Source: Escherichia phage mobillu. Taken from it: 64,000 bases of DNA. Shown piece after piece: positions 13,215 to 41,233 of this stretch (within the stretch, counting starts at the first letter, position 1; each line of letters starts with the position of its first letter). Location of the stretch: the sequence record MN850622.1; one strand, given 5' to 3'. The translations under genes and the position numbers were made by a program. The notes below the pieces were generated by a model. The model did no database searches. It saw only the letters and a program-made list of their open reading frames with translations, and was not told where the DNA came from.

Positions 13215-14165
13215 ATGACACGTTCACATTACATTGAATACTTTGCAGGTCTTATCGCTAACGTTCATGCCCAACGTGCTTCTGGTGTACTAGGATTTGA
13301 TGTTCCACACCGAGATGTAGTAAGTGGTATTCTTCGAGATTTTGGTACATACGTAGGCCAAGAAAATCATATCTGTAAAGATACTCAAAATGCATATTCT
13401 CATTCATTAGGGACACTGCTTCAATGGTTCAAACGTTCTCGTTTATTATCTTCTACTGTAGCTCGCGATAACATTAAAAACTTTATGAAGCCGAGCTTTA
13501 TTAAATCTGTGACATCTAAAACCGATTTGGTTGAATTCACTATTGTTAATGATGTTAAAAAGACTCATTTGGCTGATTGGTTAACTACCATTCCTGAAAC
13601 TAAATTTGCCGATAAATTTGCTTGTGAATTCAATAACCAAGTGAATATGCTTTTTAAACATTCTCGTAAATTATTCACAGGCGGCGATTCTCGTACAAAT
13701 ACAGTTCATGCTAAAGATTGGGTTACTGCAGTGTTCAAACCAACCGGTAATGGTACCGCATCATTATCAATTGATATTCAGGTTCCTTATTATCACTCAC
13801 GTAATCTCGGCACCATGAAAGCTGAAGAAATTAAGAAGCACAATAAAACCATTCGTTCGCTGTCTTATAAACTTCGCATGATGTTAAGAATCATGGACGT
13901 GGTAGAAATGTATGATGAAACCGAAGATAATGGTTCAATGTTATACAGTTCTCGCATTCAAATTAAGTTGAAGAACCCTAACGAGTATAAGCCTAAGCCT
14001 ATTAAAGAGCCTAAAGCAGAAAAAGTTGATAACTTAAGAGAAGAACGCGAATATCTCAAATCTCGTCTGAAAGAAGTCGAAGCCCAGATTGCAGAACAAA
14101 CTAAATCGTTAAAAGCTCTGAATGCGAAAGCGGATGGTTTACGAAATGCCATTGAGGTGTTATAA
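13215..14165 (+). CDS. hypothetical protein with C-terminal coiled coil
   Basis: ORF 316 aa; C-terminal heptad-rich segment. Confidence 0.6.
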   Translation: MTRSHYIEYFAGLIANVHAQRASGVLGFDVPHRDVVSGILRDFGTYVGQENHICKDTQNAYSHSLGTLLQWFKRSRLLSSTVARDNIKNFMKPSFIKSVTSKTDLVEFTIVNDVKKTHLADWLTTIPETKFADKFACEFNNQVNMLFKHSRKLFTGGDSRTNTVHAKDWVTAVFKPTGNGTASLSIDIQVPYYHSRNLGTMKAEEIKKHNKTIRSLSYKLRMMLRIMDVVEMYDETEDNGSMLYSSRIQIKLKNPNEYKPKPIKEPKAEKVDNLREEREYLKSRLKEVEAQIAEQTKSLKALNAKADGLRNAIEVL

Positions 14166-16285: not shown

Positions 16286-16759
16286 ATGTTATTATCAGGC
16301 GCAAAATATAAAGAAGAAAAACAAAAATTTTATGATGCACAGAATGGTAAGTGTCCTATTTGCCACCGTGAATTAGACCCTGATGTTCAAGGTAACCATC
16401 TTGACCACGACCACGAATTAAACGGGCCAAAAGCCGGTAGAGTTCGTGGATTACTCTGTAATCTGTGCAACGCAGCAGAAGGCCAAATGAAGCATAAGTT
16501 CAATCGTTCCGGTCTTAAAGGACGTGATGTTGACTACCTCGAATGGCTTGAAGCTCTTCTTGCTTATTTGAAACAAGATTATTCTGATAATAATATCCAT
16601 CCTAATTTTGTTCCAGACAAAACTAAAGAGTTCTCAAGACTAGGTAAAGAGGAAATGATGGCTGAGATGCTTCAAAGAGGATTTGAATATAATGAATCTG
16701 ACACCAAAACACAGTTAATAGCTTCATTTAAGAAGCAGCTTAGAAAGAGTTTAAAATGA
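16286..16759 (+). CDS. 49: endonuclease VII (Holliday junction resolvase)
   Basis: 157 aa; YKEEKQKFYDAQNGKCPIC..HLDHDHELNGPKAG.VRGLLCNLCN...GFEYNESDTKTQLIASFKKQLRKSLK matches T4 gp49 as I recall it. Confidence 0.9.
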   Translation: MLLSGAKYKEEKQKFYDAQNGKCPICHRELDPDVQGNHLDHDHELNGPKAGRVRGLLCNLCNAAEGQMKHKFNRSGLKGRDVDYLEWLEALLAYLKQDYSDNNIHPNFVPDKTKEFSRLGKEEMMAEMLQRGFEYNESDTKTQLIASFKKQLRKSLK

Positions 16760-18573
16760 CAATTGAAAAAGAAATTGAAGGATTGATTCATAAAACTAAT
16801 AAAGACCTTTTAAACGAGAATGCTAATAAAGATTCTCGTGTTTTTCCAACTCAACGGGACCTTATGGCCGGTATTGTGTCTAAACACATTGCCAAAAATA
16901 TGGTCCCGTCTTTTATTATGAAAGCGCATGAAAGCGGAATTATTCATTTCCACGATATTGATTATTCCCCTGCTCTTCCATTTACTAATTGCTGTTTAGT
17001 AGATTTAAAAGGAATGCTTGAAAACGGATTTAAGCTAGGTAATGCACAGATTGAAACTCCTAAATCAATTGGCGTTGCTACTGCAATTATGGCACAAATT
17101 ACTGCACAAGTTGCTTCCCATCAATACGGCGGAACGACTTTTGCTAATGTAGATAAAGTACTTTCTTCTTATGTTAAACGCACCTATGCAAAACATATTG
17201 AGGATGCAGAAAAATGGCAAATCGCTGATGCGTTGAATTATGCTCAATCTAAAACAGAAAAAGACGTATACGATGCATTCCAAGCTTATGAATATGAAGT
17301 AAATACTCTCTTTAGTTCAAACGGACAAACTCCTTTTGTAACAATTACATTTGGTACGGGAACTGACTGGACTGAACGAATGATTCAGAAAGCAATTCTG
17401 AAAAATCGTATTAAAGGTCTTGGTCGTGATGGAATAACTCCTATTTTCCCTAAGCTTGTTATGTTCGTTGAAGAAGGCGTTAATCTTTATAAAGACGATC
17501 CGAACTATGATATTAAGCAGCTTGCTCTAGAGTGTGCAAGCAAAAGAATGTATCCTGACATTATTTCGGTTAAGAATAATAAAGCTATTACCGGTTCTTC
17601 AGTTCCTGTTTCTCCAATGGGTTGCCGTAGTTTCTTGAGCGTATGGAAAGATTCAACCGGTAATGAAATTCTTGATGGTCGCAATAATCTTGGTGTTGTA
17701 ACATTGAATCTTCCTCGTATCGCGTTAGATTCTTATATTGGAACACAGTTCAATGAACAGAAATTTGTTGAGCTATTTAATGAACGAATGGATCTGTGTT
17801 TTGAAGCCTTGATGTGTAGAATTAGTTCCTTAAAAGGAGTTAAAGCAACTGTTGCTCCTATTCTTTACCAAGAAGGTGCATTAGGGGTTCGTCTTAAACC
17901 TGATGACGATATAATTGAGTTATTTAAAAACGGTAGAAGTTCAGTGTCTTTGGGATACATTGGTATTCACGAATTGAATATTCTTGTCGGTCGTGATATT
18001 GGGCAAGAAATTTTAACTAAAATGAATGCTCATCTTAAACAGTGGACTGAAAGAACCGGATTTGCTTTTAGTTTATATTCGACTCCTGCTGAAAACCTTT
18101 GTTATCGCTTCTGTAAACTTGATACAGAAAAATATGGAAGTGTAAAGGATGTCACTGATAAAGGCTGGTACACTAATAGTTTCCATGTTTCAGTAGAAGA
18201 AAATATTACTCCGTTTGAAAAGATTTCTCGTGAAGCGCCATATCATTTCATTGCGACAGGTGGTCACATTTCTTATGTTGAACTTCCTGATATGAAAAAT
18301 AACTTAAAGGGTCTTGAGGCCGTGTGGGATTATGCTGCACAACATTTAGATTATTTTGGTGTTAATATGCCAGTGGATAAATGTTTTACATGCGGAAGTA
18401 CTCATGAAATGACTCCCACTGAAAACGGATTTGTTTGTTCAGTTTGTGGAGAAAGTGATCCTAAAAAGATGAACACCATAAGAAGAACATGCGGTTATTT
18501 GGGAAATCCGAACGAACGAGGATTTAATCTCGGTAAAAATAAAGAAATCATGCATAGGGTTAAACACCAATGA
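16756..18573 (+). CDS. nrdD: anaerobic ribonucleoside-triphosphate reductase
   Basis: 605 aa; C-terminal zinc site C..C..C..C and glycyl-radical motif RRTCGYLG; uninterrupted reading frame. Confidence 0.95.
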   Translation: MTIEKEIEGLIHKTNKDLLNENANKDSRVFPTQRDLMAGIVSKHIAKNMVPSFIMKAHESGIIHFHDIDYSPALPFTNCCLVDLKGMLENGFKLGNAQIETPKSIGVATAIMAQITAQVASHQYGGTTFANVDKVLSSYVKRTYAKHIEDAEKWQIADALNYAQSKTEKDVYDAFQAYEYEVNTLFSSNGQTPFVTITFGTGTDWTERMIQKAILKNRIKGLGRDGITPIFPKLVMFVEEGVNLYKDDPNYDIKQLALECASKRMYPDIISVKNNKAITGSSVPVSPMGCRSFLSVWKDSTGNEILDGRNNLGVVTLNLPRIALDSYIGTQFNEQKFVELFNERMDLCFEALMCRISSLKGVKATVAPILYQEGALGVRLKPDDDIIELFKNGRSSVSLGYIGIHELNILVGRDIGQEILTKMNAHLKQWTERTGFAFSLYSTPAENLCYRFCKLDTEKYGSVKDVTDKGWYTNSFHVSVEENITPFEKISREAPYHFIATGGHISYVELPDMKNNLKGLEAVWDYAAQHLDYFGVNMPVDKCFTCGSTHEMTPTENGFVCSVCGESDPKKMNTIRRTCGYLGNPNERGFNLGKNKEIMHRVKHQ

Positions 18574-19040
18574 ATTATGATAGATTTTATCCTTGCGATT
18601 TTGTGAATGGCCCTGGTTGCAGGGTCGTTCTTTTCGTTACAGGTTGTTTGCATAAATGTGAAGGGTGTTATAATAAATCAACATGGAATGCTAGAAATGG
18701 TATTCCATTCACTGGTGAAACACTAGAACAATTAATTGAATGTTTGAATAATGATTATATAGAAGGATTGACTATAACCGGAGGAGACCCTCTCTATCCT
18801 GACAACCGAGATGTTATTCATTGCATTGCTCAAACAGTAAAAAATCTTTATCCCAATAAAAGCATTTGGTTGTGGACAGGATATAAGTTTGAAGATATTA
18901 AACAGCTAGAAATGCTTAAATATGTTGATGTTATTATTGATGGGAAGTATGAGAAAAATCTTCCGACCAAAAAACTGTGGCGAGGATCAGATAATCAGCG
19001 ACTTTGGTCAAATACCGATGGGGTGTGGAAACATGATTAA
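18570..19040 (+). CDS. nrdG: anaerobic RNR activating protein (radical SAM)
   Basis: 156 aa; CLHKCEGC radical-SAM cluster motif; ATGA coupling with nrdD. Confidence 0.9.
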   Translation: MNYDRFYPCDFVNGPGCRVVLFVTGCLHKCEGCYNKSTWNARNGIPFTGETLEQLIECLNNDYIEGLTITGGDPLYPDNRDVIHCIAQTVKNLYPNKSIWLWTGYKFEDIKQLEMLKYVDVIIDGKYEKNLPTKKLWRGSDNQRLWSNTDGVWKHD

Positions 19041-30659: not shown

Positions 30660-33371
30660 ATGAAAGAATTTTACTTAACGGTTGAACAGATTGGTGATTC
30701 AATTTTTGAACGTTACATCGATTCTAATGGCCGTGAACGTACTCGCGAAGTAGAATATAAACCATCACTGTTTGCTCATTGTCCAGAAAGTCAGGCTACG
30801 AAATATTTCGATATCTACGGTAAGCCGTGTACTCGTAAATTGTTCGCTAATATGCGTGATGCCTCCCAATGGATTAAACGCATGGAAGATATCGGACTTG
30901 AAGCACTTGGCATGGACGATTTCAAATTGGCGTATTTGTCTGACACTTATAACTATGAAATCAAATACGACCATACAAAAATTCGTGTGGCTAACTTCGA
31001 CATCGAAGTAACATCTCCGGACGGGTTCCCTGAGCCGTCACAAGCAAAACATCCGATTGATGCTATCACCCATTATGACTCAATTGACGACAGGTTCTAC
31101 GTATTTGATCTATTGAATTCTCCATATGGTAATGTGGAAGAATGGTCTATCGAAATTGCGGCTAAGCTTCAAGAACAAGGCGGTGATGAAGTTCCATCCG
31201 AAATTATCGATAAAATCATTTATATGCCGTTTGATAATGAAAAAGAATTATTGATGGAATATCTCAACTTCTGGCAACAGAAAACTCCTGTCATTTTGAC
31301 TGGATGGAACGTTGAGTCATTTGATATTCCATATGTGTATAACCGAATCAAGAATATTTTTGGCGAATCTACTGCGAAACGTTTATCGCCACATCGTAAA
31401 ACTCGTGTTAAAGTTATCGAAAACATGTATGGTTCTCGTGAAATCATTACATTGTTCGGTATCTCTGTTCTTGATTACATTGACCTTTACAAAAAATTCT
31501 CTTTTACCAATCAACCGTCGTATTCTCTGGATTACATTTCAGAATTTGAATTGAACGTTGGTAAACTGAAATATGACGGCCCTATTTCTAAGCTTCGTGA
31601 AAGCAATCACCAACGATATATTTCTTATAACATTATCGACGTGTATCGTGTATTGCAAATTGATTCTAAGCGTCAGTTCATCAACTTGAGCTTGGACATG
31701 GGTTATTATGCTAAAATTCAGATTCAATCTGTGTTTAGCCCAATTAAAACATGGGATGCTATTATTTTTAATAGCCTTAAAGAGCAGAACAAGGTGATTC
31801 CACAAGGTCGTTCTCACCCGGTTCAACCTTATCCTGGCGCTTTTGTTAAGGAACCTATTCCAAATCGATACAAATATGTAATGAGTTTCGACCTTACATC
31901 TCTGTATCCAAGTATTATTCGCCAAGTGAATATTAGCCCTGAAACAATAGCAGGAACGTTTAAAGTAGCTCCACTGCATGATTATATTAACGCAATCGCT
32001 GAACGTCCTTCAGATGTGTACAGTTGTTCTCCTAACGGCATGATGTATTATAAAGACCGTGATGGTGTAGTTCCAACTGAAATCACTAAGGTCTTTAATC
32101 AACGTAAAGAACATAAAGGTTATATGCTTGCAGCTCAACGTAATGGTGAAATAATTAAAGAGGCATTGCATAATCCTAATCTTTCTGTTGACGAACCATT
32201 AGATGTTGATTATCGTTTTGACTTCACTGACGAGATTAAAGAAAAGATTAAAAAGTTGTCTGCTAAATCTCTTAATGAAATGTTGTTTAGAGCTCAACGT
32301 ACTGAAGTTGCAGGTATGACTGCACAAATTAACCGTAAATTGCTTATCAACTCACTTTATGGTGCACTTGGCAACGTTTGGTTCCGTTATTATGATTTGC
32401 GTAATGCTACTGCAATCACAACATTCGGGCAAATGGCTTTACAGTGGATTGAACGTAAAGTTAATGAATATCTGAATGAAGTTTGTGGTACAGAAGGTGA
32501 AGCTTTCGTTCTTTATGGTGATACAGACTCTATTTACGTATCTGCTGATAAAATTATCGATAAGGTTGGTGAATCTAAATTCCGCGATACTAACCATTGG
32601 GTAGACTTCTTAGATAAGTTTGCACGTGAACGTATGGAACCAGCTATTGATAGAGGTTTCCGTGAAATGTGTGAATACATGAACAATAAACAACACTTAA
32701 TGTTCATGGACCGAGAAGCTATCGCTGGTCCTCCGCTCGGTTCTAAAGGTATTGGTGGATTCTGGACTGGCAAGAAACGTTATGCATTAAACGTGTGGGA
32801 TATGGAAGGCACTCGTTACGCCGAGCCTAAACTCAAAATCATGGGTCTAGAGACTCAGAAATCTTCGACCCCTAAAGCAGTACAGAAAGCTCTTAAAGAA
32901 TGTATTCGTCGTATGCTTCAAGAAGGTGAAGAATCATTACAAGAATATTTTAAAGAGTTTGAAAAAGAATTCCGTCAATTGAATTATATTAGCATCGCGT
33001 CGGTATCTTCTGCGAATAACATTGCTAAATATGACGTAGGTGGATTCCCGGGTCCTAAATGCCCGTTCCATATTCGTGGAATTCTGACGTATAACCGAGC
33101 TATCAAAGGTAATATTGATGCACCACAAGTTGTAGAAGGTGAAAAAGTATATGTTCTGCCTTTACGTGAAGGAAACCCATTCGGTGATAAATGTATCGCA
33201 TGGCCTTCTGGTACTGAAATCACAGATTTAATTAAAGACGATGTACTTCATTGGATGGACTACACTGTTCTCCTTGAGAAGACATTTATTAAACCGCTTG
33301 AAGGATTCACATCAGCAGCTAAACTCGATTACGAGAAGAAAGCATCTCTGTTCGATATGTTTGATTTTTGA
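30660..33371 (+). CDS. 43: DNA polymerase (family B) gp43
   Basis: 903 aa; exonuclease motif FDIEV, polymerase motifs DxxSLYPS, KxxxNSLYG, YGDTDS; N-terminus matches the RB69-type polymerase as I recall it. Confidence 0.97.
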   Translation: MKEFYLTVEQIGDSIFERYIDSNGRERTREVEYKPSLFAHCPESQATKYFDIYGKPCTRKLFANMRDASQWIKRMEDIGLEALGMDDFKLAYLSDTYNYEIKYDHTKIRVANFDIEVTSPDGFPEPSQAKHPIDAITHYDSIDDRFYVFDLLNSPYGNVEEWSIEIAAKLQEQGGDEVPSEIIDKIIYMPFDNEKELLMEYLNFWQQKTPVILTGWNVESFDIPYVYNRIKNIFGESTAKRLSPHRKTRVKVIENMYGSREIITLFGISVLDYIDLYKKFSFTNQPSYSLDYISEFELNVGKLKYDGPISKLRESNHQRYISYNIIDVYRVLQIDSKRQFINLSLDMGYYAKIQIQSVFSPIKTWDAIIFNSLKEQNKVIPQGRSHPVQPYPGAFVKEPIPNRYKYVMSFDLTSLYPSIIRQVNISPETIAGTFKVAPLHDYINAIAERPSDVYSCSPNGMMYYKDRDGVVPTEITKVFNQRKEHKGYMLAAQRNGEIIKEALHNPNLSVDEPLDVDYRFDFTDEIKEKIKKLSAKSLNEMLFRAQRTEVAGMTAQINRKLLINSLYGALGNVWFRYYDLRNATAITTFGQMALQWIERKVNEYLNEVCGTEGEAFVLYGDTDSIYVSADKIIDKVGESKFRDTNHWVDFLDKFARERMEPAIDRGFREMCEYMNNKQHLMFMDREAIAGPPLGSKGIGGFWTGKKRYALNVWDMEGTRYAEPKLKIMGLETQKSSTPKAVQKALKECIRRMLQEGEESLQEYFKEFEKEFRQLNYISIASVSSANNIAKYDVGGFPGPKCPFHIRGILTYNRAIKGNIDAPQVVEGEKVYVLPLREGNPFGDKCIAWPSGTEITDLIKDDVLHWMDYTVLLEKTFIKPLEGFTSAAKLDYEKKASLFDMFDF

Positions 33372-33411
33372 TATAATGCCAAGGACGGCCAACTAATTAA
33401 ATGAGAGAAAT

Positions 33412-34047
33412 ATGAAAACTACACCAATCACTATCGCTATTGACGCAATCGTAAAACAAGCTTCATCTCTTGCCACTATGGCTAAAGTAATTAGTCAAAA
33501 CCCTGCTCGGTATAATGCTATTCTTGAAACTCTTCGTCGCCCTGGACTGAGTAATTATGAAAGTCGTGTAATTATTACAGGTGTTGGTAAGAACGCTAAT
33601 ATCGCAACTAAAGCTTCCGAGACTTTTGCTTCACTAGGTATTCCTAGCATGTATTTGAACACTGGGCATTATTCTCATGGTGACGCAGGATTTATTGCAC
33701 CTAATGATGTATTAGTTCACATCAGCCGTTCTGGTAAGACTGAAGAAATGATAGGTGTTGCTAAACATCTTCGTATGATTCGTCCTCAGGTTAAACAGAT
33801 TCTGTTACATTGTAACCCTGACATTCCACAAGAATACGAAGCCCTTTTTGATTACTCTTTCTGTACAGGCATCGCGGTAGAGGTTGATGAGAATTCTCTG
33901 GCTCCGACCATGTCCACTACATTGTTGTTAGCGCTTATCGATACGTTTGCTATCAACCTTTCGTCTGAACGTGGATTTACCTCTAATGATTTCCTTAAGT
34001 TCCATCCAGGCGGTGCACTAGGTGCCATGTTACGAGGCGAACAATGA
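33412..34047 (+). CDS. SIS-domain sugar-phosphate isomerase (GmhA/KdsD-like)
   Basis: 211 aa; SIS signature VIITGVGKNANIA...HISRSGKTEE; single-domain size similar to phosphoheptose isomerase. Confidence 0.75.
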   Translation: MKTTPITIAIDAIVKQASSLATMAKVISQNPARYNAILETLRRPGLSNYESRVIITGVGKNANIATKASETFASLGIPSMYLNTGHYSHGDAGFIAPNDVLVHISRSGKTEEMIGVAKHLRMIRPQVKQILLHCNPDIPQEYEALFDYSFCTGIAVEVDENSLAPTMSTTLLLALIDTFAINLSSERGFTSNDFLKFHPGGALGAMLRGEQ

Positions 34048-34187
34048 AAGCAATAACAATAGGACTTTTACTATTGATGCTTGTCATGACTATCTACTGG
34101 AGCTTAACGGCTCCGGTAATGATTCCAACACTTGTAATTGGATGGATTATGATTGGTCTACAGGCAAAGTATGAATGCTTTAACTAG
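34044..34187 (+). CDS. hypothetical small membrane protein (47 aa)
   Basis: ATGA coupling with SIS gene stop; two hydrophobic segments; below ORF-track cutoff. Confidence 0.4.
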   Translation: MKAITIGLLLLMLVMTIYWSLTAPVMIPTLVIGWIMIGLQAKYECFN

Positions 34188-34228
34188 AATAGTGTACAAT
34201 ACTCCTACTTACCAATGAGGACTTCAAC

Positions 34229-35914
34229 ATGAAAAAAGCTGTTATTCTTGGTGCTGGATTGGCAACTCGTTTGTATCCAATAACGCATCATATTCCTAAG
34301 GTGCTTGTTAACTATAAACAAGACACTATTCTGAGCAATTTGTATACAATTTATTCTGACCTTGGCGCAGATGAAATTATTGTAGTAGTTCATTCAAAAT
34401 TTGCTGAAACTGTTCGAGCTTATTGTGAGCAAGAAGGGTTCAATGTGACTATTCGTACAGTTGATGAAGCGTATGGTTCTGCTTATGCTCTTGCTAAATT
34501 ACACAAAGATTTAGACGGCCATAATGTAATTGTTAACTGGTGTGATATTATTCCCGATTTTGGTTCATGGTCTTGGAATGTTAACGCAATCTATGTTAAG
34601 GGTGACGAATGTCGATATAATTTCGACGGTGAAAATATCACTAACGTAGGTTCAACAGGTGGTAATGTTGTAGGAATTTATCAGTTCAAAGACTGGGAAT
34701 TCTATATGGGTTCTACTGATGAGGAAATTCATGAATACTGCAAAGGACGTGATTTCGTAGAATTCCTTTACGGCAGCGCATTCAATAAATCAGAGCTTAT
34801 GAATATAATTGATTTAGGTGATATGCCTAAACTTGAAAAGGCTCATGAAGTTCGTGAACTTAATCGTAGTTTTAATGCAGTTGAAATTGGTGAAGAAACT
34901 GTAACTAAATTCGCATTAACCGAACAGGGACGAGCTCTTCAGAAAGATGAGATTTCGTGGTATTTGAAAGTGAAATCAGATTCAGTTCCTCAGTTAGTTT
35001 CTGTTAATGAAAATAACTTTGAAATGGAACGCATTAAAGGTAAGCCGGCATTTGAATATATTAAATCAAAATCAAGTCTTGCTCGTCCACAAATTATTGA
35101 TGCAATTTTAGATGCACTGAAATTCAGCACAGACACTTATTTTGTAAGTCCTGAAACTGTTCGTCGTGATTTCACTAAAGAATTCTATACGAAAGTTATT
35201 GATCGTTGTGAAAGCATTCAACCATTGATTGATTCATTTGGTAAAATCACACATGTGAACTACACTAAGATTGGACGTCTGAAGCCAATGCTGAAACAAG
35301 CTTTAGAACACCTTATTCGTTATCATAACCGTTCTCAGGGACAGTACTCTGTTATTCATGGTGACCCGAACTTCAGTAATACTATGATTACTGATAACGG
35401 CGAAGTCAAGTTTATCGACCCTCGTGGATATTTTGGCGAAACCAAGATTTACGGGCCAAAATTGTATGATGAAGCTAAAGTGCTTTATGCTGTTTCAGGT
35501 TATGATGAATTCAATGCTAATCCGACCTGGGGACAGTTTACTATTGATGAAACAACTTGTAATGTGACTATTAACATCAATCCATTAGTTTACAAATATG
35601 GAAAGATGAGTTCGTTTAACGAGTATCATCATTTGGCTGTAGCAATTATCTGGATTGCATTAGGTGGTTATTTCAAGAATAATCCACTTAAAGCGGTAGC
35701 CGCATATTATAAAGGTATGGAACTTCTGACTAAGCAATTACGTAACATGGGCCGTGTACTTCAAGACGGCTCTATTAGTTATGACGTAGCAGAACCTGTA
35801 ACGGCTACTCTGATTACAAAAAATCCTGGTAAATGGGTACTAACTGATAAAGAAACTGGTGTTTCCTATCGTCCAATCGGTGGCGATATCACTCATCAAT
35901 GGGAACGAATCTAA
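34229..35914 (+). CDS. bifunctional sugar-1-phosphate nucleotidyltransferase / sugar kinase (APH-choline kinase fold)
   Basis: 561 aa; N-terminal NTP-transferase signature AVILGAGLATRLYPIT..PK; C-terminal kinase motifs VIHGDPNFSNTMI and FIDPRGYFGE. Confidence 0.75.
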   Translation: MKKAVILGAGLATRLYPITHHIPKVLVNYKQDTILSNLYTIYSDLGADEIIVVVHSKFAETVRAYCEQEGFNVTIRTVDEAYGSAYALAKLHKDLDGHNVIVNWCDIIPDFGSWSWNVNAIYVKGDECRYNFDGENITNVGSTGGNVVGIYQFKDWEFYMGSTDEEIHEYCKGRDFVEFLYGSAFNKSELMNIIDLGDMPKLEKAHEVRELNRSFNAVEIGEETVTKFALTEQGRALQKDEISWYLKVKSDSVPQLVSVNENNFEMERIKGKPAFEYIKSKSSLARPQIIDAILDALKFSTDTYFVSPETVRRDFTKEFYTKVIDRCESIQPLIDSFGKITHVNYTKIGRLKPMLKQALEHLIRYHNRSQGQYSVIHGDPNFSNTMITDNGEVKFIDPRGYFGETKIYGPKLYDEAKVLYAVSGYDEFNANPTWGQFTIDETTCNVTININPLVYKYGKMSSFNEYHHLAVAIIWIALGGYFKNNPLKAVAAYYKGMELLTKQLRNMGRVLQDGSISYDVAEPVTATLITKNPGKWVLTDKETGVSYRPIGGDITHQWERI

Positions 35915-36300
35915 TGCACCGTGTAGAAAACATGCTTAATCTTTGTTTTGATGTCGATGATTGTATAACAGAGTGGAATAACAATCGTGATTACGTGAAC
36001 TTCAAACCAGACGTCGAAATGGTGTCTGCCATTAATGCCCTGTATGATGCAGGGCATACCATAACGCTTTACACTGCTCGCGGTATGAAGTCAGTAGGTC
36101 CTGGTCGTATAGCAATTGACATTCTCCCAAGTCTGATTCAGAACTTGGCAAACATTGGCTTGAAGTACCATAATTTGCTAACACATAAACCAGTATATGA
36201 TTGGATTATCGACGACAAAGCTATGCGTCCTGACGAATTCAAAGCTCTTATGAATAAAGGCGAATTCGAAACATTTAAATCATATAAACCAAATCTATAA
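35914..36300 (+). CDS. HAD-superfamily phosphatase
   Basis: 128 aa from ATG 35914 (TAATG coupling); HAD motif I FDVDDCIT near N-terminus; C-terminal WIIDDKA. Confidence 0.65.
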   Translation: MHRVENMLNLCFDVDDCITEWNNNRDYVNFKPDVEMVSAINALYDAGHTITLYTARGMKSVGPGRIAIDILPSLIQNLANIGLKYHNLLTHKPVYDWIIDDKAMRPDEFKALMNKGEFETFKSYKPNL

Positions 36301-36357
36301 TAATTTAAGTAAGACCTGCAAAAACCATCGCATCAATTAACGTGAGATGCAAAAAAA

Positions 36358-37518
36358 ATGAATACTTTTAAAATCGGAACGAATTTTGATTTAGCTCTTC
36401 TTGATAAAATCGTAGAGCTCAATAAAACTTATCCTAATAGCTTGATAAACGAAGTATACGGCTCTACAAGAGAAATGGCTTTTGTAGCAGCCAGACCTGA
36501 TTTTAGGCTTCCTGACGTTGACAAAAAGATGTTAGAAGATTACGTTAAACGTTGTAACGAATTAGGTATTTGCTTTAACTATACACTCAACACGATAAAT
36601 CCTGGTTCAAAAAGAGAACTAGTTGAGTGGAAGAAGAAAGCTATTCAGGATTATGTTCAGTATCTTTGGTCAATAGGCGTATGGCGTATTACTATCGCTA
36701 ACCCTGTTGTTATGGAAATTGTTCGTGAAGTCAATAAAGACATTGAGATTGAAGTTTCAACAATTCTACATGTCGATGCTGTAACTCAAATCAAATACTT
36801 GCATGACCAGTATAATATCAAAAAGGTCTGCTGTGGAATTCATAAGAACCGTTCAGTTTCTTTCCTGAAGCGTGCAGCAGAGTTTTGCAATAAGAACAAT
36901 ATAATATTTGAAGTTCTTGTAAATGAGTTCTGTTCTAATGCTGGTAAAGGGTATACAACACATTGTAGCTATCGTGACTCTTGCTATATTTTCCATAGTA
37001 CTGATGTTACAGCTGATGATGCTAAATCCTTAAACGGATATCCTATGCAGCACTGTATTAAAGCTCGTGATACAGACCCATTTAACTGGTTGAGAACTCG
37101 TTTTGTTCGTCCTCAAGATTTGAAACTTTATAATGATATTGGTATCACTCAATTCAAAGTTTCAGGACGTACAGGTAGCACAGACTACATTTTGAAAGTT
37201 CTTGAAGCATACGCTTCTGAAAAGTTTGAAGGTAATTTGTTAGAACTGTGGAAGCCTTTAGAGACTATTTTCACTCTTGAAAATGAGACCGAGTTTTCAC
37301 ATACGGTAAATATTGAAACCTCTTTGTTAGATGGCTTTTTAGAAAAAAGGTGGTTCAGACATCCAGATTTCGATTGTGCTAATGAAATCTGCGGGACGAC
37401 GTGTACATATTGTGAAAGATATTATAAACGTCAGTTATCTAAAAATGGGTTATCAGAAAATTCTATATCTATTATTGATATAACTAACTCTGATGACGCT
37501 TTGAGGTACCCAGAATGA
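36358..37518 (+). CDS. U32-family-like Cys-rich protein (tentative)
   Basis: 386 aa; layout YTLNTIN ... EVSTILHV ... IFEVLVNEFCSNAGKGYTTHCSY resembles U32 (PrtC/RlhA/UbiU) family; C-terminal cluster C-x4-C-x4-C-x2-C. Confidence 0.55.
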   Translation: MNTFKIGTNFDLALLDKIVELNKTYPNSLINEVYGSTREMAFVAARPDFRLPDVDKKMLEDYVKRCNELGICFNYTLNTINPGSKRELVEWKKKAIQDYVQYLWSIGVWRITIANPVVMEIVREVNKDIEIEVSTILHVDAVTQIKYLHDQYNIKKVCCGIHKNRSVSFLKRAAEFCNKNNIIFEVLVNEFCSNAGKGYTTHCSYRDSCYIFHSTDVTADDAKSLNGYPMQHCIKARDTDPFNWLRTRFVRPQDLKLYNDIGITQFKVSGRTGSTDYILKVLEAYASEKFEGNLLELWKPLETIFTLENETEFSHTVNIETSLLDGFLEKRWFRHPDFDCANEICGTTCTYCERYYKRQLSKNGLSENSISIIDITNSDDALRYPE

Positions 37519-37754
37519 TTTCTAGAAAAACTTTTAACCACCAACTTAATGAAGAGATTTTGACTATGAAAATTAACAGCAACGAACAAATTCTTAAAAA
37601 GGCCCTTATGGGCCTGTTTGAAACTAAAGCGGCTAAAGTGATTAAAGGACCTGTTCAATTGGAATACTACGCTGATGCATTTCTTCATAGTGTTCTTGGA
37701 AGTATCGATGCTGAAGCTTTACGTTATATCAACATTGTCAAGAAATTCAAATAA
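37515..37754 (+). CDS. hypothetical protein
   Basis: ORF 79 aa, ATGA overlap. Confidence 0.5.
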   Translation: MISRKTFNHQLNEEILTMKINSNEQILKKALMGLFETKAAKVIKGPVQLEYYADAFLHSVLGSIDAEALRYINIVKKFK

Positions 37755-37796
37755 GCTTTACGAATTGAGTATATAATAAATTGTATTGAGGTAAAC

Positions 37797-38513
37797 ATGG
37801 GAAAACATAACACAATGAAATATATCAAAGCCGCAGATTTTCAAACCGCATTTAAAGCAGTCAATCGTGAAATTTTAGAAAACCCGGAATTCGTAACTGA
37901 TTCTCGTATTGGACGTTGTAATGAAATTGGGTCTATGACAGTAGTTGTTGACACTCCATCATCATTCAAAATGACCGACCCACGTATTAACCGCATCTCT
38001 TATGAATACGCCGAAGATTTCTGGAAGTTTATGATTTCTGGTGGTACCAACGCAGAAGAAGCGTTTAAGGCATATCCTAATGTCGCTAAATTTATTTCTA
38101 AACCAAAATCAGATGTTTTGCCGGCGAACTTCAACACTTTCTACGGTCCTCGCATTGCGGCCCAATTACCAGCTCTTCTAAAAGAACTTAAAGAGAAGCC
38201 TAACTCCCGAAGAGTTGTGTTCCAAATTCTAGAAAGTTCTGATCAGGCTTTGCTTGATTCAGACGAAACGCTTGAATATCCATGTACTGACTCAGTGACT
38301 TATTATATTCGTGATGGTAAGCTTTATACCCACTGTCATATGCGTTCTCAGAACTGTGCTGTTGTTATGCAGTTGGATTTTTATCTCCAAGGAAAATTAC
38401 TTCATTATATCGCTAACGAATGTGGTGTAGAAGTTGGTGATTATACTCATACCATGGTAAGTGCCCATGTGTTTGAACGTGATTTTGATTATGTTAAAGG
38501 ATTCCTTGACTAA
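37797..38513 (+). CDS. 42: dCMP hydroxymethylase gp42 (thymidylate synthase family)
   Basis: 238 aa; PCTDSVTYYIRD ... HMRSQN segments correspond to T4 gp42 active-site region as I recall it. Confidence 0.8.
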   Translation: MGKHNTMKYIKAADFQTAFKAVNREILENPEFVTDSRIGRCNEIGSMTVVVDTPSSFKMTDPRINRISYEYAEDFWKFMISGGTNAEEAFKAYPNVAKFISKPKSDVLPANFNTFYGPRIAAQLPALLKELKEKPNSRRVVFQILESSDQALLDSDETLEYPCTDSVTYYIRDGKLYTHCHMRSQNCAVVMQLDFYLQGKLLHYIANECGVEVGDYTHTMVSAHVFERDFDYVKGFLD

Positions 38514-39412
38514 TGGCTATTTTCCGCGTACCAATCTTGAGTATGCGGTCTTATGAAACTGGACAGTATGCTATCCTTAAGGATGGCAACTTCCAACTTC
38601 ATTTGCACCGTGCTAATCCAGGTGATGTGATTACATATCCACGTAATGCATCTGATATTAAAGAATGCGAACGTCTTTTCCCAGAATTTAAGTTTGTTCC
38701 ATTATGGTATAAAGATAACGCGTATAACACTCGTAAATATTTCTGGTCTGAAAATGAATTTGTGGTTGATTCATTAATTGCTTATTATGATTGTGATTTT
38801 CTAATCACAGATATCACCGGATATGACGGTGCTTTTGATGTAGAATTCAATTTCAATATCACTGCAGACCCTAATAAACCACGTTTTTATATTGACGAAT
38901 TCTTAAAAACCGACATGTTGTCGGTTAATCGTTCACTTCAAACTACTGTGTTGAACGAACGTCAAAAAGAAGTGCTGGTTAACGCAGGTGCAGATGGTAA
39001 TAAGATTATCGTAACGCAGAAAGTTATACGTCCTTCCATCATGCAGCGTCTTGTAGGTGATTTGGCTCCTATTCATCTAGATGGTATTTTTCATCCATTT
39101 CGAATTAGCGACCCGTGCTATCGTTTTGAACAAGTGGTTGAATGTGCAATTCAATTAGGCCAACCGCTTTATATAACCGATCCAAATAATAGCTTCGACA
39201 GAAATAAGTATCCTGAAGAAGCGCTGATTCGAATTTTTAAACCAACTAAAACTGAGTACTATCAAATTCTTAAAGGACGTCCGAAAATTCAATATTTCGA
39301 AAATCCTGAAGAAGTATTCCATCCAGGTCTTGGTGAGTTCATCTACTTTAATGCTTTAATTTCTTCGCCGTATAATATACCTAAATATGAAGATGTCGTA
39401 ATCGAGGAATAA
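38513..39412 (+). CDS. hypothetical protein occupying the beta-glucosyltransferase locus
   Basis: 299 aa; no similarity to T4 beta-gt recognised; TAATG coupling with gene 42. Confidence 0.6.
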   Translation: MAIFRVPILSMRSYETGQYAILKDGNFQLHLHRANPGDVITYPRNASDIKECERLFPEFKFVPLWYKDNAYNTRKYFWSENEFVVDSLIAYYDCDFLITDITGYDGAFDVEFNFNITADPNKPRFYIDEFLKTDMLSVNRSLQTTVLNERQKEVLVNAGADGNKIIVTQKVIRPSIMQRLVGDLAPIHLDGIFHPFRISDPCYRFEQVVECAIQLGQPLYITDPNNSFDRNKYPEEALIRIFKPTKTEYYQILKGRPKIQYFENPEEVFHPGLGEFIYFNALISSPYNIPKYEDVVIEE

Positions 39413-39413
39413 A

Positions 39414-39962
39414 ATGGCTAAAATTATTTTAGTAGATGGCCCAGATAATGCTGGTAAAACAACTTTCATTAATGACATAATGGAAATTAGTGAAAGATAT
39501 GTAAAGATTGATTTCCCTAAACGAACAGTTGATGGGCGTTTCGATGTTAAGTCTCGAAATGAAGTTGGCTGCTTCGAAACGATGTTGAATTATTTAGACC
39601 CTACTAAGATTTATCTGTTAGACCGTGGATATATTAGTAACTGGGTTTATGGACGTATTCGACAAGATGCGGACTCGGTTCTTGACGTTTATGAACAGGA
39701 TTATGTTCGTCTTTGCCAAAACCATGATGTGTTCACAATTATTTTAACACGTAACGAAATGACTGAAAGTTTTGAAGACGACCTTATTACTTTGTCTTCA
39801 TTCGGTTTTAATACAGTCATTTCACATTTTGAAGAGTTTGCAATTCATAACAAAATCCAAACGTATCAATTACTTAATCATGATGGTGCTAACAAAGTTA
39901 TAGGATTTAATGCAAGCGAACGTAATTATTTGATTACAGAAATTATCAAATGGGCTCGTTAA
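39414..39962 (+). CDS. P-loop nucleoside/nucleotide kinase-like protein
   Basis: 182 aa; Walker A VDGPDNAGKTT; LDRGYIS resembling dNK/TMK family. Confidence 0.65.
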   Translation: MAKIILVDGPDNAGKTTFINDIMEISERYVKIDFPKRTVDGRFDVKSRNEVGCFETMLNYLDPTKIYLLDRGYISNWVYGRIRQDADSVLDVYEQDYVRLCQNHDVFTIILTRNEMTESFEDDLITLSSFGFNTVISHFEEFAIHNKIQTYQLLNHDGANKVIGFNASERNYLITEIIKWAR

Positions 39963-40060
39963 GAGCCATTTAAAGTTTTAAATGCTGTATAACCCTTAGT
40001 ATATAATCATCTTATCTTTTAAACATGAGTAAAATATAATGATGCCTATGGAAAAATACA

Positions 40061-41233
40061 ATGTCTGATTTAAAATCTCGTTTGATTAAAGCTTCTACTT
40101 CTAAAATGACTGCAGACTTGACTAAGTCTAAGCTGTTTAATAATCGCGATGAAGTCCCTACTCGTATTCCAATGTTGAATATTGCACTAGGTGGTGCACT
40201 GAATGCCGGGTTGCAATCAGGCTTGACTATTTTTGCTGCTCCTTCTAAACACTTTAAAACGTTGTTTGGACTGACCATGGTTGCAGCATATATGAAGAAA
40301 TATAAAGATGCAATCTGTTTGTTTTATGACTCAGAATTCGGTGCTTCGGAATCTTATTTTCGTTCAATGGGTGTTGATTTAGACCGTGTAGTTCATACTC
40401 CGATTCAATCGGTCGAACAACTTAAGGTTGATATGACTAATCAGCTTGACGCGATTGAACGCGGTGATAAAGTTATTATCTTTATTGACTCGATTGGTAA
40501 TACTGCATCTAAGAAAGAAACCGAAGATGCATTGAACGAGAAAGTTGTAGGTGATATGTCTCGTGCTAAGGCACTTAAATCTCTGTTCCGCATTGTGACC
40601 CCGTATCTGACTATTAAAGATATTCCGTGTGTTGCAATTAACCATACAGCAATGGAAATCGGCGGATTGTATCCTAAAGAGATTATGGGCGGTGGTACAG
40701 GTATTCTTTATTCTGCCAACACGGTATTTTTTATCTCTAAACGTCAGGTTAAAGAAGGTACAGAATTGACCGGTTATGACTTCACGTTGAAAGCAGAAAA
40801 ATCTCGCACAGTTAAAGAGAAATCTACTTTCCCGATCACGGTTAATTTTGATGGCGGTATTGACCCATTCAGTGGCTTGTTAGAAATGGCAACTGAAATT
40901 GGTTTTGTAGTTAAGCCTAAAGCTGGTTGGTATGCTCGTGAATTCCTTGACGAAGAAACAGGTGAAATGATTCGTGAAGAAAAATCATGGCGTGCTAAAG
41001 CTACTGATTGTGTAGAATTCTGGGGACCTTTGTTTAAACACAAACCTTTCCGAGATGCAATTGAAACTAAATATAAACTAGGTGCTATCTCTTCTATTAA
41101 AGAAGTTGATGACGCTGTTAACGACCTTATTAATTGCAAAGCAACAACTAAAGTTCCGGTTAAAACTTCTGATGCTCCATCTGCAGCAGATATAGAAAAC
41201 GACCTTGACGAAATGGAAGATTTCGATGAATAA
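40061..41233 (+). CDS. uvsX: recombinase UvsX (RecA-like)
   Basis: 390 aa; Walker A-like AAPSKHFKT, RecA core; matches T4 UvsX size and position. Confidence 0.9.
   Translation: MSDLKSRLIKASTSKMTADLTKSKLFNNRDEVPTRIPMLNIALGGALNAGLQSGLTIFAAPSKHFKTLFGLTMVAAYMKKYKDAICLFYDSEFGASESYFRSMGVDLDRVVHTPIQSVEQLKVDMTNQLDAIERGDKVIIFIDSIGNTASKKETEDALNEKVVGDMSRAKALKSLFRIVTPYLTIKDIPCVAINHTAMEIGGLYPKEIMGGGTGILYSANTVFFISKRQVKEGTELTGYDFTLKAEKSRTVKEKSTFPITVNFDGGIDPFSGLLEMATEIGFVVKPKAGWYAREFLDEETGEMIREEKSWRAKATDCVEFWGPLFKHKPFRDAIETKYKLGAISSIKEVDDAVNDLINCKATTKVPVKTSDAPSAADIENDLDEMEDFDE

Follow-up and report, generated by a model that had tools for sequence, protein, structure and literature searches.

In E. coli, the U32-family protein RlhA (YdcP) is required for the formation of 5-hydroxycytidine at C2501 of 23S rRNA (PMC5727448; PMC6599085). 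Experiments on UbiU and UbiV have shown a [4Fe-4S] cluster in each subunit, bound by four cysteines of which one lies outside the canonical position (PMC6747719). UbiUV, TrhP, and RlhA depend on prephenate as oxygen donor or as a metabolite they require (PMC10990095; PMC6599085), and its role as the donor has been proven for UbiU/UbiV (PMC10990095). TrhP and TrhO occur together in facultative organisms, whereas anaerobes have the U32 route alone and aerobes have just the O2-dependent one (PMC6599085). No U32 protein has been directly shown to have hydroxylase activity in vitro (PMC10990095). Reconstitution has not yet been achieved, the obstacle being an electron acceptor that has not been identified, and in the case of ubiquinone the hydrophobic and non-commercial substrates add a further one (PMC10990095; PMC6747719).

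DNA of RB69-type phages contains arabosylated 5-hydroxycytosine (5hoC), the hydroxyl of which is installed by a ThyA-like enzyme with flavin and O2 (PMC13326640). O2 dependence of the RB69 enzyme, gp48, was shown by 18O2 labelling, and together with a dNMP kinase the ThyA-like enzyme suffices for aerobic incorporation of 5hodC into DNA (PMC13326640). LC-MS and NMR analysis of RB69 DNA detected mono- and di-arabinosyl-5hoC only. Acinetobacter phage DLP3, whose cluster lacks the U32 gene present in RB69, has the same base, arabinosyl-5-hydroxycytosine, with even more arabinose than RB69 (PMC13326640). That a U32 gene resides in a phage modification cluster has been known since 2006, when RB69ORF050c was given as 'Peptidase family U32' (PMC1524935), and is hence not new in itself. 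A match of its product, gp50, to the structure 5d88 has also been reported earlier (PMC13326640). What is new here is the linkage of U32 to chorismate mutase (CM) genes, together with the pattern in which U32 and ThyA-like genes are distributed across phages. Full-text literature searches turned up nothing relevant that would tie DNA modification in phages to U32, prephenate, or chorismate mutase.

The U32 gene and its cassette

The window analyzed here, a stretch of 64,000 nucleotides from Escherichia phage mobillu (MN850622.1), represents an RB69-like Mosigvirus, and its U32 gene (36358..37518, plus strand) is RB69 gp50. The ATG-to-stop reading frame encodes 386 amino acids and contains the three segments from which a sequence-only reading had proposed U32 membership, namely YTLNTIN (residues 75-81), EVSTILHV (residues 132-139), and IFEVLVNEFCSNAGKGYTTHCSY (residues 183-205). 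This proposal was borne out by profile searches and by fold. PF01136 scored 42.2 bits over residues 94-286, where the gathering cut-off is 22.4 (E = 7.3e-11), and a profile of the phage clade aligned with E. coli RlhA at 85% probability in HHalign (E = 5.8e-6). PF01136 is also precomputed for nearly all homologues among the matches listed, and PHROG 5757, annotated as 'peptidase', scored 886 bits. An AlphaFold2 model of the protein (pLDDT 93.5, pTM 0.91) showed a U32-type, TIM-barrel-like fold, with 5d88 (U32 protein MK0906) as the best Foldseek match in the PDB (E = 4.8e-7; TM 0.69, target-normalised) and generic TIM barrels below it. When the PDB was searched by sequence, neither the protein alone nor the clade profile found a meaningful match.

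Within the family, the phage proteins form a separate clade that is orthologous to no characterized member. TrhP, RlhA, UbiU, and UbiV of E. coli all scored below 16 bits (15 bits or less) against the clade profile in hmmsearch. The NCBIfam UbiU equivalog reached 18.5 bits against a cut-off of 440, so that the phage protein is no orthologue of UbiU, and no other equivalog was matched. The HHalign alignment with TrhP (20% probability) covered the N-terminal half alone and was excluded from residue mapping. Copies with at least 80% identity were present in 221 phage records. Synonymous/non-synonymous codon differences amounted to 11/0 and 10/1 relative to two Mosigvirus relatives and to 159/42 relative to an 89%-identical Klebsiella-type phage; the U32 gene is under strong purifying selection.

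Gene order in the window confirmed that the U32 gene is embedded in a sugar/DNA-modification cassette, whose members are all encoded on the plus strand. Upstream of it lie genes for an arabinose-5-phosphate (A5P) isomerase with a SIS domain (33412..34047; RB69 gp55 orthologue; Pfam SIS, 37.3 bits, and annotation in relatives), an AfhE-like bifunctional sugar-1-phosphate nucleotidyltransferase/kinase (34229..35914; gp52:53 orthologue; Pfam NTP_transferase and weak kinase-family matches; PMC13326640), and a HAD-type, AfhF-like phosphatase (35899..36300; gp51 orthologue; NCBIfam TIGR01689, 49 bits; PMC13326640). Downstream, orf79 is followed by the ThyA-like 5-hydroxy-dCMP synthase (37797..38513; gp48 orthologue; Pfam Thymidylat_synt, 56.9 bits), DNA arabinosyltransferase 1 (GT; 38513..39412; gp46:47 orthologue; PHROG 3891; PMC13326640, Table 1), and a thymidylate-kinase-like (TMPK-like) nucleotide kinase (39414..39962; gp45 orthologue). 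The kinase was assigned from the Bas46 annotation 'putative thymidylate kinase' and Table 1 of PMC13326640, and had no Pfam match at E ≤ 0.001. The sequence-only reading had assumed hmC-type chemistry for this locus, but the published base is arabinosyl-5-hydroxycytosine (PMC13326640). The link to CM had escaped that reading. In all 15 T4-like IMG/VR loci, U32 occupied the same cluster position. Genes for the anaerobic reductase NrdD/NrdG are likewise found in the window. A promoter and terminator scan of positions 33200..40200 returned fewer promoter-like sites than shuffled sequences did and was therefore uninformative.

The small gene orf79 (37515..37754; 79 amino acids; PHROG 8601) overlaps the U32 stop codon by 4 bp and is under relaxed selection (4/4 and 3/3 synonymous/non-synonymous codon differences). 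It fills the slot that is held by CM in most other genera; in Yersinia, Pectobacterium, and Serratia phages, a homologous small ORF exists in addition to CM and is situated between it and U32. Its identification as a diverged CM was rejected: it had no CM_2 match, and the phage CM profile gave 0.1% probability in hhalign.

Essential residues and putative metal sites

The core U32 signature, a putative [4Fe-4S] site, extends from E190 to C233 (36925..37056, plus strand), as judged by HHalign and MAFFT mapping and by conservation. E190, C203, and C209 align with E161, C169, and C176 of RlhA in HHalign, and with E162, C170, and C177 of TrhP, residues which are essential in vivo in both enzymes (PMC6599085). 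MAFFT agreed with this mapping for both cysteines and shifted the glutamate by one column. E190, C203, and C209 are invariant in 110 clade members. Residues of the signature region including C192 and C233 are invariant in 110-121 members with identity down to 47%, and nine cysteines are invariant across 121 homologues.

The spacing of the phage cysteines, C-x5-C-x23-C (C203, C209, C233), is unlike the family Fe-S pattern CX6CX15CX3/4C, of which UbiU and UbiV possess displaced variants (PMC6747719). MAFFT matched these three cysteines to Fe-S ligand columns, whereas HHalign and MAFFT differed in the third ligand. Since the canonical fourth column is occupied by Arg237, we put forward two invariant residues, C192 and C158 (codon at 36829..36831, plus strand; C158 conserved in 121/121), either of which could act as a displaced fourth ligand, by analogy with UbiU C232 and UbiV C39.

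A C-terminal four-cysteine cluster, also pointed out in the sequence-only reading, is indeed present; its spacing had been given as x4-x4-x2 and is in fact C340-x4-C345-x3-C349-x2-C352 (37375..37413, plus strand). Each of the four cysteines is conserved in 121/121 homologues, and the model is of high confidence here (pLDDT about 94-96). No counterpart was found in the MAFFT-aligned region of the E. coli U32 enzymes, and the C-terminal 96 residues alone matched no Pfam domain at E ≤ 10. This motif may constitute a further metal site, housing another Fe-S cluster or structural zinc.

Linkage to chorismate mutase and distribution relative to the ThyA-like gene

A CM_2 chorismate mutase gene is located between the U32 and ThyA-like genes in seven of nine sampled T4-like lineages (33-45 bits, GA 27) and in 13 of 15 T4-like IMG/VR loci, and the AroQ catalytic residues are invariant in the phage CM proteins. 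The 51 phage records retrieved by tblastn for phage CM were all T4-like phages of Enterobacterales or Shewanella and belonged to the same genera as the U32 carriers, while CM was not found in three sampled clusters lacking U32. In Shewanella phage Thanatos-2, the U32-CM pair has been relocated together elsewhere in the cluster. The window's own genus, Mosigvirus, is without chorismate mutase, which counts against the explanation proposed below. Elsewhere in the window no convincing CM was found, the best six-frame match being fragmented and scoring 16 bits.

More distant relatives were surveyed in 33 non-T4 viral loci of ~20 kb each (~10 kb on either side of U32). Among the viral contigs of distant jumbo phages (45-55% identity), standalone CMs lie immediately downstream of U32 and DAHP-synthase/CM fusions adjoin it; with the DAHPS-CM fusions included, CM adjoins U32 in 10-12 of the 33 loci. 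The CM link recurs independently in the distant contigs. We also considered that the DAHP_synth_1 domains might be KDO8P synthases, an identity which would have tied them to A5P, not to shikimate. This was rejected on the basis of 125-164 bits with DAHPS models versus 30-56 bits with KDO8PS models.

The ThyA-like gene was present in all 15 T4-like loci and missing near U32 in 32-33 of the 33 non-T4 loci (six-frame translation, E ≤ 1e-4, within the ~20-kb loci). A GT homologue (cluster c1, 77 bits) was found near U32 in 23 of these 33 loci, an AfhE homologue beside it in 16, and an A5P isomerase homologue (cluster c5, 86 bits) in 9. One distant layout comprises genes for an NTP pyrophosphohydrolase, a TMPK-like kinase, a GT, U32, and a DNA polymerase, which has the apparent logic of a nucleotide-replacement pathway. 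Other U32 homologues adjoin genes for dCMP deaminase, TMP kinase, UDG, NT5C, and dNK. Eight cellular or MAG copies of U32 originated from Erysipelotrichales, Lachnospiraceae, Romboutsia, Bacillota, Tannerella, Phocaeicola, and BRC1, all of which we take to be obligate anaerobes, and in none of the eight loci was a ThyA-like gene found near U32.

Cultured U32-bearing phages among the matches listed all infect Enterobacterales or Shewanella. The ThyA-like gene was detected in 373 phage records, including those of Acinetobacter (57) and Rhizobium (20) phages, in which, as in phages of Agrobacterium and Pseudomonas, it occurs without U32. Clusters without U32 are found in Acinetobacter phages Konradin and DLP3, Pseudomonas phage PspYZU05, and E. 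coli Dhakavirus Bp7; thus, U32 is an accessory and probably condition-specific rather than a core component of the modification system. The ThyA-like gene is present without U32 in E. coli Dhakaviruses (Bp7, for example) and in some phages of Enterobacter and Serratia, which implies that U32 is not obligatory for phages of facultative anaerobes. The data fit a pattern in which phages of facultative anaerobes possess both enzymes, phages of aerobes only the ThyA-like enzyme, and anaerobe-assigned phages and contigs only U32. Such a distribution fits a second way of making this same 5-hydroxypyrimidine, one that does without O2.

Proposed oxygen-independent hydroxylation and known systems

On comparative evidence, we consider it probable, at roughly 0.6, that the phage U32 protein is an O2-independent, prephenate-dependent pyrimidine C5-hydroxylase, which backs up or replaces the O2-dependent enzyme without adding a modification step. 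As a predicted Fe-S enzyme, it would hydroxylate C5 of a cytosine deoxynucleotide without O2, most probably of dCMP, which would place the reaction at the level of the mononucleotide rather than of DNA. Prephenate would give the oxygen atom, as in the reactions of RlhA (ho5C in 23S rRNA), TrhP (ho5U in tRNA), and UbiU/UbiV (ubiquinone). The resulting 5-hydroxy-dCMP would then join the route of the ThyA-like product via the kinase, the DNA polymerase, and the arabinosyltransferases. Because the ThyA-like enzyme requires flavin and O2, both enzymes might form an aerobic/anaerobic pair, comparable to TrhO/TrhP, UbiIHF/UbiUV, and the T-even NrdAB/NrdDG, that would keep fully modified DNA in production for a phage of facultative anaerobes in the anoxic gut. 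In most relatives, prephenate would be supplied by the phage's own CM encoded beside U32; Mosigvirus, including the phage of the window, has lost CM and would rely on host PheA and TyrA. The same base in RB69, with U32, and DLP3, without it, is as expected for a conditional redundancy of this kind. In distant phages the target base could be uracil and not cytosine, since dCMP deaminase genes neighbor U32 there.

It is tempting to speculate, albeit with less than even confidence, that phages of anaerobic bacteria obtain 5-hydroxypyrimidine DNA chiefly by way of the U32-CM module, which would probably also be the older route, and that the enzyme acts on a free, soluble deoxynucleotide. Numerous uncultured jumbo phages infecting gut Bacillota and Bacteroidota would then glycosylate a U32-made hydroxyl on their DNA bases and, by means of the DAHPS-CM fusions, would boost the host shikimate pathway to supply the organic oxygen donor. 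The enzyme itself would become the first hydroxylase of the U32 family amenable to reconstitution in vitro, as well as the first known to function in DNA rather than in RNA or quinone metabolism.

Linkage to CM would suit any prephenate-dependent hydroxylation, the characterized RlhA and TrhP work on RNA, and the family profile aligns best with RlhA. The phage protein might thus be a U32-type hydroxylase with another substrate, introducing an extra modification of the base or the arabinose, or modifying tRNA U34 or rRNA C2501 to tune translation during infection. We regard this as unlikely. The finding of mono- and di-arabinosyl-5hoC only in RB69 DNA, and of the same base in DLP3 without U32 (PMC13326640), leaves the additional base or sugar modification step suggested by the sequence-only reading unsupported. 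U32 is always located among genes for GT, dNTP pyrophosphatase, nucleotide kinase, dCMP deaminase, and DNA polymerase, and one layout (layout C) retains it together with nucleotide and GT genes where sugar-activation genes are not nearby. Moreover, a role independent of 5hoC would leave unexplained why U32 turns up in precisely those places in which the ThyA-like hydroxylase is absent.

Still less probable is a redox or accessory function, either as a sugar or heterocycle reductase, the label given to gp50 in Table 1 of a 2026 paper (PMC13326640), or as an Fe-S electron-transfer partner regenerating the reduced flavin of the ThyA-like synthase. The latter enzyme holds FMN loosely and requires it in reduced form (PMC13326640), up to two putative metal clusters are found in the U32 protein, and the U32 and ThyA-like genes of Klebsiella phage Clarke_MM3 directly adjoin each other. 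However, such a partner would have no ThyA-like gene nearby in 32-33 of the 33 distant viral and all eight genome or MAG loci, phages of aerobes run the ThyA-like enzyme without U32, and heterologous gp48 is active in E. coli without gp50 (PMC13326640). The repeated independent linkage to CM and DAHPS-CM fusions would also be left unexplained. A U32 'collagenase-like' peptidase, processing for instance phage or host proteins, is suggested by the historical name of the family and by many GenBank records reading peptidase, collagenase-like protease, or U32 peptidase, yet it is hardly credible given an invariant Glu/Cys set of the hydroxylation and Fe-S type rather than a protease catalytic set, a context of nucleotide and DNA-modification metabolism in every locus examined, and a CM linkage without rationale for a protease.

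If the U32 protein indeed acts as an O2-independent C5-hydroxylase, this would explain how phages that left folate-based 5hmC for O2-dependent 5hoC chemistry replicate in the anoxic gut, which is relevant to the Mosigviruses now in use in phage therapy. Prephenate-dependent U32 hydroxylation, known to date for rRNA, tRNA, and ubiquinone, would thereby reach DNA precursors and viruses as well, and the U32 mechanism could ideally be settled on a protein that is small, consists of one subunit, and acts on dCMP. From the clusters of U32, GT, and AfhE genes in uncultured jumbo phages, we would predict that anaerobic microbiomes harbor glycosylated hydroxypyrimidine DNA as a large reservoir yet to be sampled; the same clusters point to viral auxiliary metabolic genes of a possible new class, directed at the shikimate pathway.

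The best structural match of the phage protein, MK0906 (PDB 5d88), is to our knowledge the only solved U32 structure. It is an archaeal protein of 247 amino acids that shares 11% identity with the phage protein and is without a counterpart to its C-terminal region. RlhA belongs to the same Pfam family and, of all E. coli paralogues, gives the best profile match (HHalign, 85%), and its essential glutamate and two cysteines are kept in the phage protein. The proposed phage product is likewise 5-hydroxycytosine, and dependence on prephenate and Fe-S would be shared (PMC5727448; PMC6599085). However, RlhA has 653 amino acids and acts on an rRNA residue, whereas the phage protein has 386 and its proposed substrate is a deoxynucleotide or DNA. 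The phage protein further differs in its own C-terminal four-cysteine motif, in its cysteine spacing, and in Arg237 at the position of the CX3C fourth ligand. UbiU and UbiV are also U32 proteins serving as an anaerobic alternative to flavin monooxygenases, but they form a heterodimer that acts on a lipid substrate with UbiT as an accessory, in contrast to the single phage polypeptide with two candidate metal sites.

The ThyA-like 5hodCMP synthases (RB69 gp48, DLP3 gp80, and the HY126 enzyme) resemble the phage U32 protein in proposed product and pathway position, and the synthase is encoded in the same cluster, two genes downstream of U32. They are experimentally characterized enzymes within the thymidylate synthase superfamily that use flavin and O2, whereas U32 has a TIM-barrel fold and is proposed to use Fe-S and prephenate. 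The closest logic is that of TrhP and TrhO, in which a prephenate-dependent U32 protein and an unrelated O2-dependent route lead to the same 5-hydroxypyrimidine, ho5U34 of tRNA (PMC6599085). The phage U32/ThyA-like pair would follow the same three-way distribution, although its O2-dependent partner is a flavin-dependent ThyA homologue and not a rhodanese like TrhO, its proposed substrates are DNA precursors instead of tRNA, and a dedicated CM is frequent in the phages.

The U32 gene of the arabinosylation cluster

The gene at 36358..37518 (+ strand, ATG start) encodes a 386-aa protein which the sequence-only reading had assigned to the peptidase U32 family from three sequence segments, all of them present in the ORF. 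Profile searches support this assignment. Pfam PF01136 (Peptidase_U32) matched residues 94-286 with 42.2 bits against a gathering cutoff of 22.4 (E = 7.3e-11), and PHROG 5757, annotated as "peptidase", matched the protein end to end. NCBIfam returned a weak UbiU match alone, with 18.5 bits against a cutoff of 440, so that no named enzyme qualifies as an orthologue.

The window is 98-99% identical to genomes of Mosigvirus, RB69-like T-even phages (e.g., JK45, APCEc01, and Bas46). The gene order is DNA polymerase, arabinose-5-phosphate (A5P) isomerase (33412..34047), AfhE-like nucleotidyltransferase/kinase (34229..35914), HAD phosphatase (35899..36300), U32, a 79-aa ORF (37515..37754, + strand), the ThyA-like gene (37797..38513), glycosyltransferase (GT; 38513..39412), a TMP-kinase-like gene (39414..39962), and uvsX. 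Thus, the U32 protein corresponds to RB69 gp50. Its gene is the most constrained of the cluster, with synonymous/nonsynonymous codon differences of 11/0, 10/1, and 159/42 in three comparisons. At a distance from the cluster, GC skew was close to zero in the 2-kb bin 12001..14000, compared to values of +0.03 to +0.18 in the rest of the window, and three ORFs of similar size (316-331 aa) are located at 11142..14165.

A Pfam U32 match of RB69ORF050c was already on record in 2006 (PMC1524935), and RB69 gp50 is not mentioned in the 2018 arabinosylation paper. In 2026, a NAR paper revised the chemistry: DNA of RB69 and of Acinetobacter phage DLP3 carries arabinosylated 5-hydroxycytosine (5hoC), not hmC, and the flavin-binding ThyA homologue RB69 gp48 puts the hydroxyl on dCMP, with the oxygen taken from 18O2 (PMC13326640). 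In that work, gp50 appears only in Table 1, as "Sugar or heterocycle reductase" with fold match 5d88 and without discussion, and the DLP3 cluster gp76-83 lacks U32 (PMC13326640). Full-text searches of the accessible literature retrieved no report linking phage U32, prephenate, or chorismate mutase (CM) to DNA modification. U32 membership of gp50 was already known; the functional reading proposed here appears to be new within the accessible literature. Its basis is that U32 is linked to CM and to DAHP-synthase/CM (DAHPS-CM) fusions, is distributed reciprocally to the O2-dependent hydroxylase, and is widespread among uncultured phages of anaerobes.

Conserved residues and predicted fold

A large protein database search retrieved 268 U32 homologues, with identities of 76-87% for T4-like phage proteins and 47-58% for a big metagenomic group. 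Nine cysteines (C158, C192, C203, C209, C233, C340, C345, C349, and C352) are invariant across 121 sequences, among which C177 is 98% conserved; E190, R206, H213, R237, R251, K267, and R271 are likewise invariant in the clade. The C-terminal Cys cluster perceived in the sequence-only reading is present, but its spacing is C340-x4-C345-x3-C349-x2-C352 instead of x4-x4-x2. This segment had no Pfam domain match and is a candidate for a second Fe-S cluster or a zinc site.

Published ligand sets of U32 enzymes are C169/C176/C193/C232 in UbiU and C39/C180/C193/C197 in UbiV, with the general pattern CX6CX15CX3/4C (PMC6747719), and E162/C170/C177 of TrhP and E161/C169/C176 of RlhA are essential in vivo (PMC6599085). 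When the clade profile was aligned to RlhA with HHalign (85% probability, E 5.8e-6, 207 columns), E190, C203, and C209 mapped to RlhA E161, C169, and C176. MAFFT selected the same two cysteines and placed C233 in the third-ligand column and Arg237 in the fourth canonical column. Judging from UbiU and UbiV, C192 or C158 is a plausible displaced fourth ligand of the putative Fe-S site. The AlphaFold2 model (pLDDT 93.5, pTM 0.91; disorder limited to the last ~20 residues) best matched the U32 protein MK0906 in the PDB (5d88; E 4.8e-7, target-normalised TM 0.69), followed by generic TIM barrels.

Linkage of U32 to prephenate synthesis

By tblastn, U32 was found in 221 cultured-phage records, all with at least 80% identity, and in several of these the following gene carries a chorismate mutase annotation. 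Pfam CM_2 (gathering cutoff 27) gave 33-45 bits for the small ORF that separates U32 from the ThyA-like gene in Enterobacter Entb_45, Serratia LC53, Shewanella Thanatos-2, Klebsiella CP-p-KP-21072, Pectobacterium PM2, Yersinia TG1, and Proteus phiP4-3. Counterparts of the AroQ catalytic set, which we take to be Arg11, Arg28, Lys39, Glu52, Ser84, and Gln88 in E. coli EcCM numbering, are invariant in the alignment of these phage CMs. The U32-CM pair occupies a different cluster position in Thanatos-2 and therefore moved as a unit. Entb_45 CM matched 51 records in tblastn, all from T4-like phages of Enterobacterales or Shewanella belonging to U32-bearing genera, with no match in other phage types, and CM was not found in the three U32-less clusters examined. 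Prephenate is the product of chorismate mutase. It has been proven to donate the oxygen in the case of UbiU/V (PMC10990095) and is a metabolite required by TrhP and RlhA (PMC6599085).

In the window, the 79-aa ORF, overlapping the U32 stop codon by 4 bp, was considered as a chorismate mutase and rejected. Its homologue is an additional small ORF that separates U32 from CM in phages of Yersinia, Pectobacterium, and Serratia. The 79-aa ORF is fast-evolving (synonymous/nonsynonymous differences of 4/4 and 3/3; 87-99% identical among Mosigvirus phages, with a frameshift in some records). As CM was not found elsewhere in the window either, it was lost in Mosigvirus, as in one Klebsiella lineage. 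An antisense 85-aa ORF (37431..37688, - strand) overlapping the 79-aa ORF is probably spurious. Serratia phage LC53 has an insertion of a putative homing endonuclease between phosphatase and U32 (L002:4352-4990; L numbers denote homologous loci), and other homing endonucleases break up neighbouring genes in related phages, e.g., PspYZU05 and phiP4-3. Klebsiella phages Clarke_MM3 and CP-p-KP-21072 (L016/L017) have a rearranged cluster lacking A5P isomerase after the polymerase, with the TMP-kinase-like gene directly upstream of U32; Clarke_MM3 lost both the small ORF and CM.

An IMG/VR scan yielded 48 loci, 15 T4-like and 33 on other viral contigs (up to 295 kb; U32 identity 40-55%). CM is adjacent to U32 in 10-12 of the 33 non-T4 loci, in some as a standalone gene immediately downstream and in others as a DAHPS-CM fusion (L047:8411-9430, L048:9-968, L050:7302-8354, L051:8332-9384, and L061:11079-12194). 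With NCBIfam scores of 125-164 bits for DAHP synthase versus 30-56 bits for KDO8P synthase, the fusions group with the DAHP synthases. They are apparent viral auxiliary metabolic genes boosting shikimate-to-prephenate flux.

Clustering of neighbour proteins at the non-T4 loci showed U32 to be surrounded by homologues of the pathway genes in the window, with a GT (cluster c1, 77 bits to the product of 38513..39412) in 23, an AfhE-like enzyme in 16, and an A5P isomerase (86 bits) in 9, besides a second GT, TMP-kinase-like kinases, and NTP pyrophosphohydrolase. Three layouts recur: GT, isomerase, AfhE, (DAHPS-CM), c3, U32 (layout A); U32, CM, GT, AfhE, c3, GT2 (layout B); and primase, SSB, NTP pyrophosphohydrolase, kinase, GT, U32, DNA polymerase III alpha (layout C). 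Genes for dCMP deaminase, TMP kinase, UDG, NT5C, deoxynucleoside kinase, and nucleoside deoxyribosyltransferase were found beside other U32 homologues. The conserved ~200-aa protein c3 (16 loci; e.g., L058:16570-17169 and L060:9280-9939), encoded always after AfhE-like or directly before U32, had no match in Pfam or PHROG and may be a functional analogue of AfhF phosphatase or a U32 partner. Layout B loci L053-L064, on 200- to 295-kb phage contigs, carry paired RimK-like ATP-grasp/NlpC-P60 fusions just upstream of U32-CM-GT-AfhE (e.g., L055:5867-7630, - strand). In two Bacillota-type contigs, U32 has a highly divergent paralogue ~4 kb further downstream (L010:13227-14360 and L070:13224-14357), located after a radical SAM/SPASM gene and amid NT5C, a PnuC-like transporter, deoxynucleoside kinase, and nucleoside deoxyribosyltransferase; this region may be a different nucleoside-modification island.

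Reciprocal distribution and proposed function

A profile of the 5-hydroxy-dCMP synthase, searched against six-frame translations, detected the ThyA-like gene in 15/15 T4-like loci and gave a single weak match (L037, 16.6 bits) in the 33 non-T4 loci (575 kb). L037 contains the sole thymidylate-synthase-family gene at non-T4 U32 loci (L037:5491-6357; PHROG 160, 237 bits), probably an ordinary ThyA. Thus, the distant phages possess the arabinosylation toolkit and U32 without a ThyA-like gene within ~10 kb on either side of U32. A genome collection added eight U32 loci (Erysipelotrichales, Lachnospiraceae, two from Romboutsia, a Bacillota MAG, Tannerella, Phocaeicola faecalis, and a BRC1 MAG), all from lineages of obligate anaerobes; three have layout B, and none has a ThyA-like gene in view. 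The ThyA-like gene was found in 373 cultured-phage records, including phages of Acinetobacter (57), Rhizobium (20), Agrobacterium, and Pseudomonas. These four groups are absent from the U32 tblastn matches, none of which fell below 80% identity, and in Acinetobacter Konradin and Pseudomonas PspYZU05, whose clusters were inspected individually, the ThyA-like gene comes immediately after the phosphatase gene.

The distribution is thus tripartite: phages of aerobes have the O2-dependent enzyme only, phages and contigs assigned to strict anaerobes U32 only, and phages of facultative anaerobes both. This pattern has exceptions, since U32 is also missing from E. coli Dhakavirus Bp7 and from some phages of Enterobacter and Serratia. 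In Bp7, a 178-aa P-loop kinase-like ORF (L005:6468-7004) occupies the U32-CM slot of other genera, and a recognisable A5P isomerase was not found in the cluster.

We propose, with a probability of roughly 0.6 and on comparative evidence, that phage U32 hydroxylates a pyrimidine deoxynucleotide at C5 in an O2-independent, prephenate-dependent reaction. This best explains the distribution, the repeated linkage to prephenate synthesis, and the conservation of hydroxylase-essential residues, considering also that the sister enzyme RlhA makes 5-hydroxycytosine, the same base as in the phage DNA. U32 would supply the hydroxyl that arabinosyltransferases decorate. T-even phages destroy dCTP, and because of this strategy and the neighbouring dNTP pyrophosphatase, kinases, and dCMP deaminase, a mononucleotide would be the favoured substrate. 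Alternatively, U32 may act on DNA, since RlhA and TrhP act on polynucleotides, and in some distant phages the target base could be uracil. In line with the proposal, the window encodes NrdD (16756..18573; Pfam NRDD, 570 bits), next to Endonuclease VII (16286..16759), together with the radical-SAM activase NrdG (18570..19040), so that this phage already has the means to make dNTPs anaerobically. In T4, 5hmC is classically made by a folate-based route that does not need O2; only 5hoC phages would need a backup.

Action of U32 on a different substrate, in an extra modification or on RNA, seems unlikely, considering that the base is the same in RB69 and in DLP3, which has no U32, and that the genomic context is consistently DNA-precursor metabolism. 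We regard a role as reductase or flavin-regenerating partner of the ThyA-like enzyme as still less likely, as it leaves the chorismate mutase linkage unaccounted for and U32 occurs without the ThyA-like gene. Peptidase activity, with the historical name as its sole support, is highly improbable.

If phage U32 is indeed a prephenate-dependent hydroxylase, the U32 enzymes would extend to viruses and to a new class of substrates, in a one-subunit form that has an additional Cys cluster and a prephenate supply of its own. The predictions of this proposal are sharp and inexpensive, and the phage protein could provide the U32 field with its missing soluble-substrate model. The distribution of the ThyA-like and U32 enzymes in phages follows the same pattern as that described for TrhO/TrhP and UbiIHF/UbiUV.
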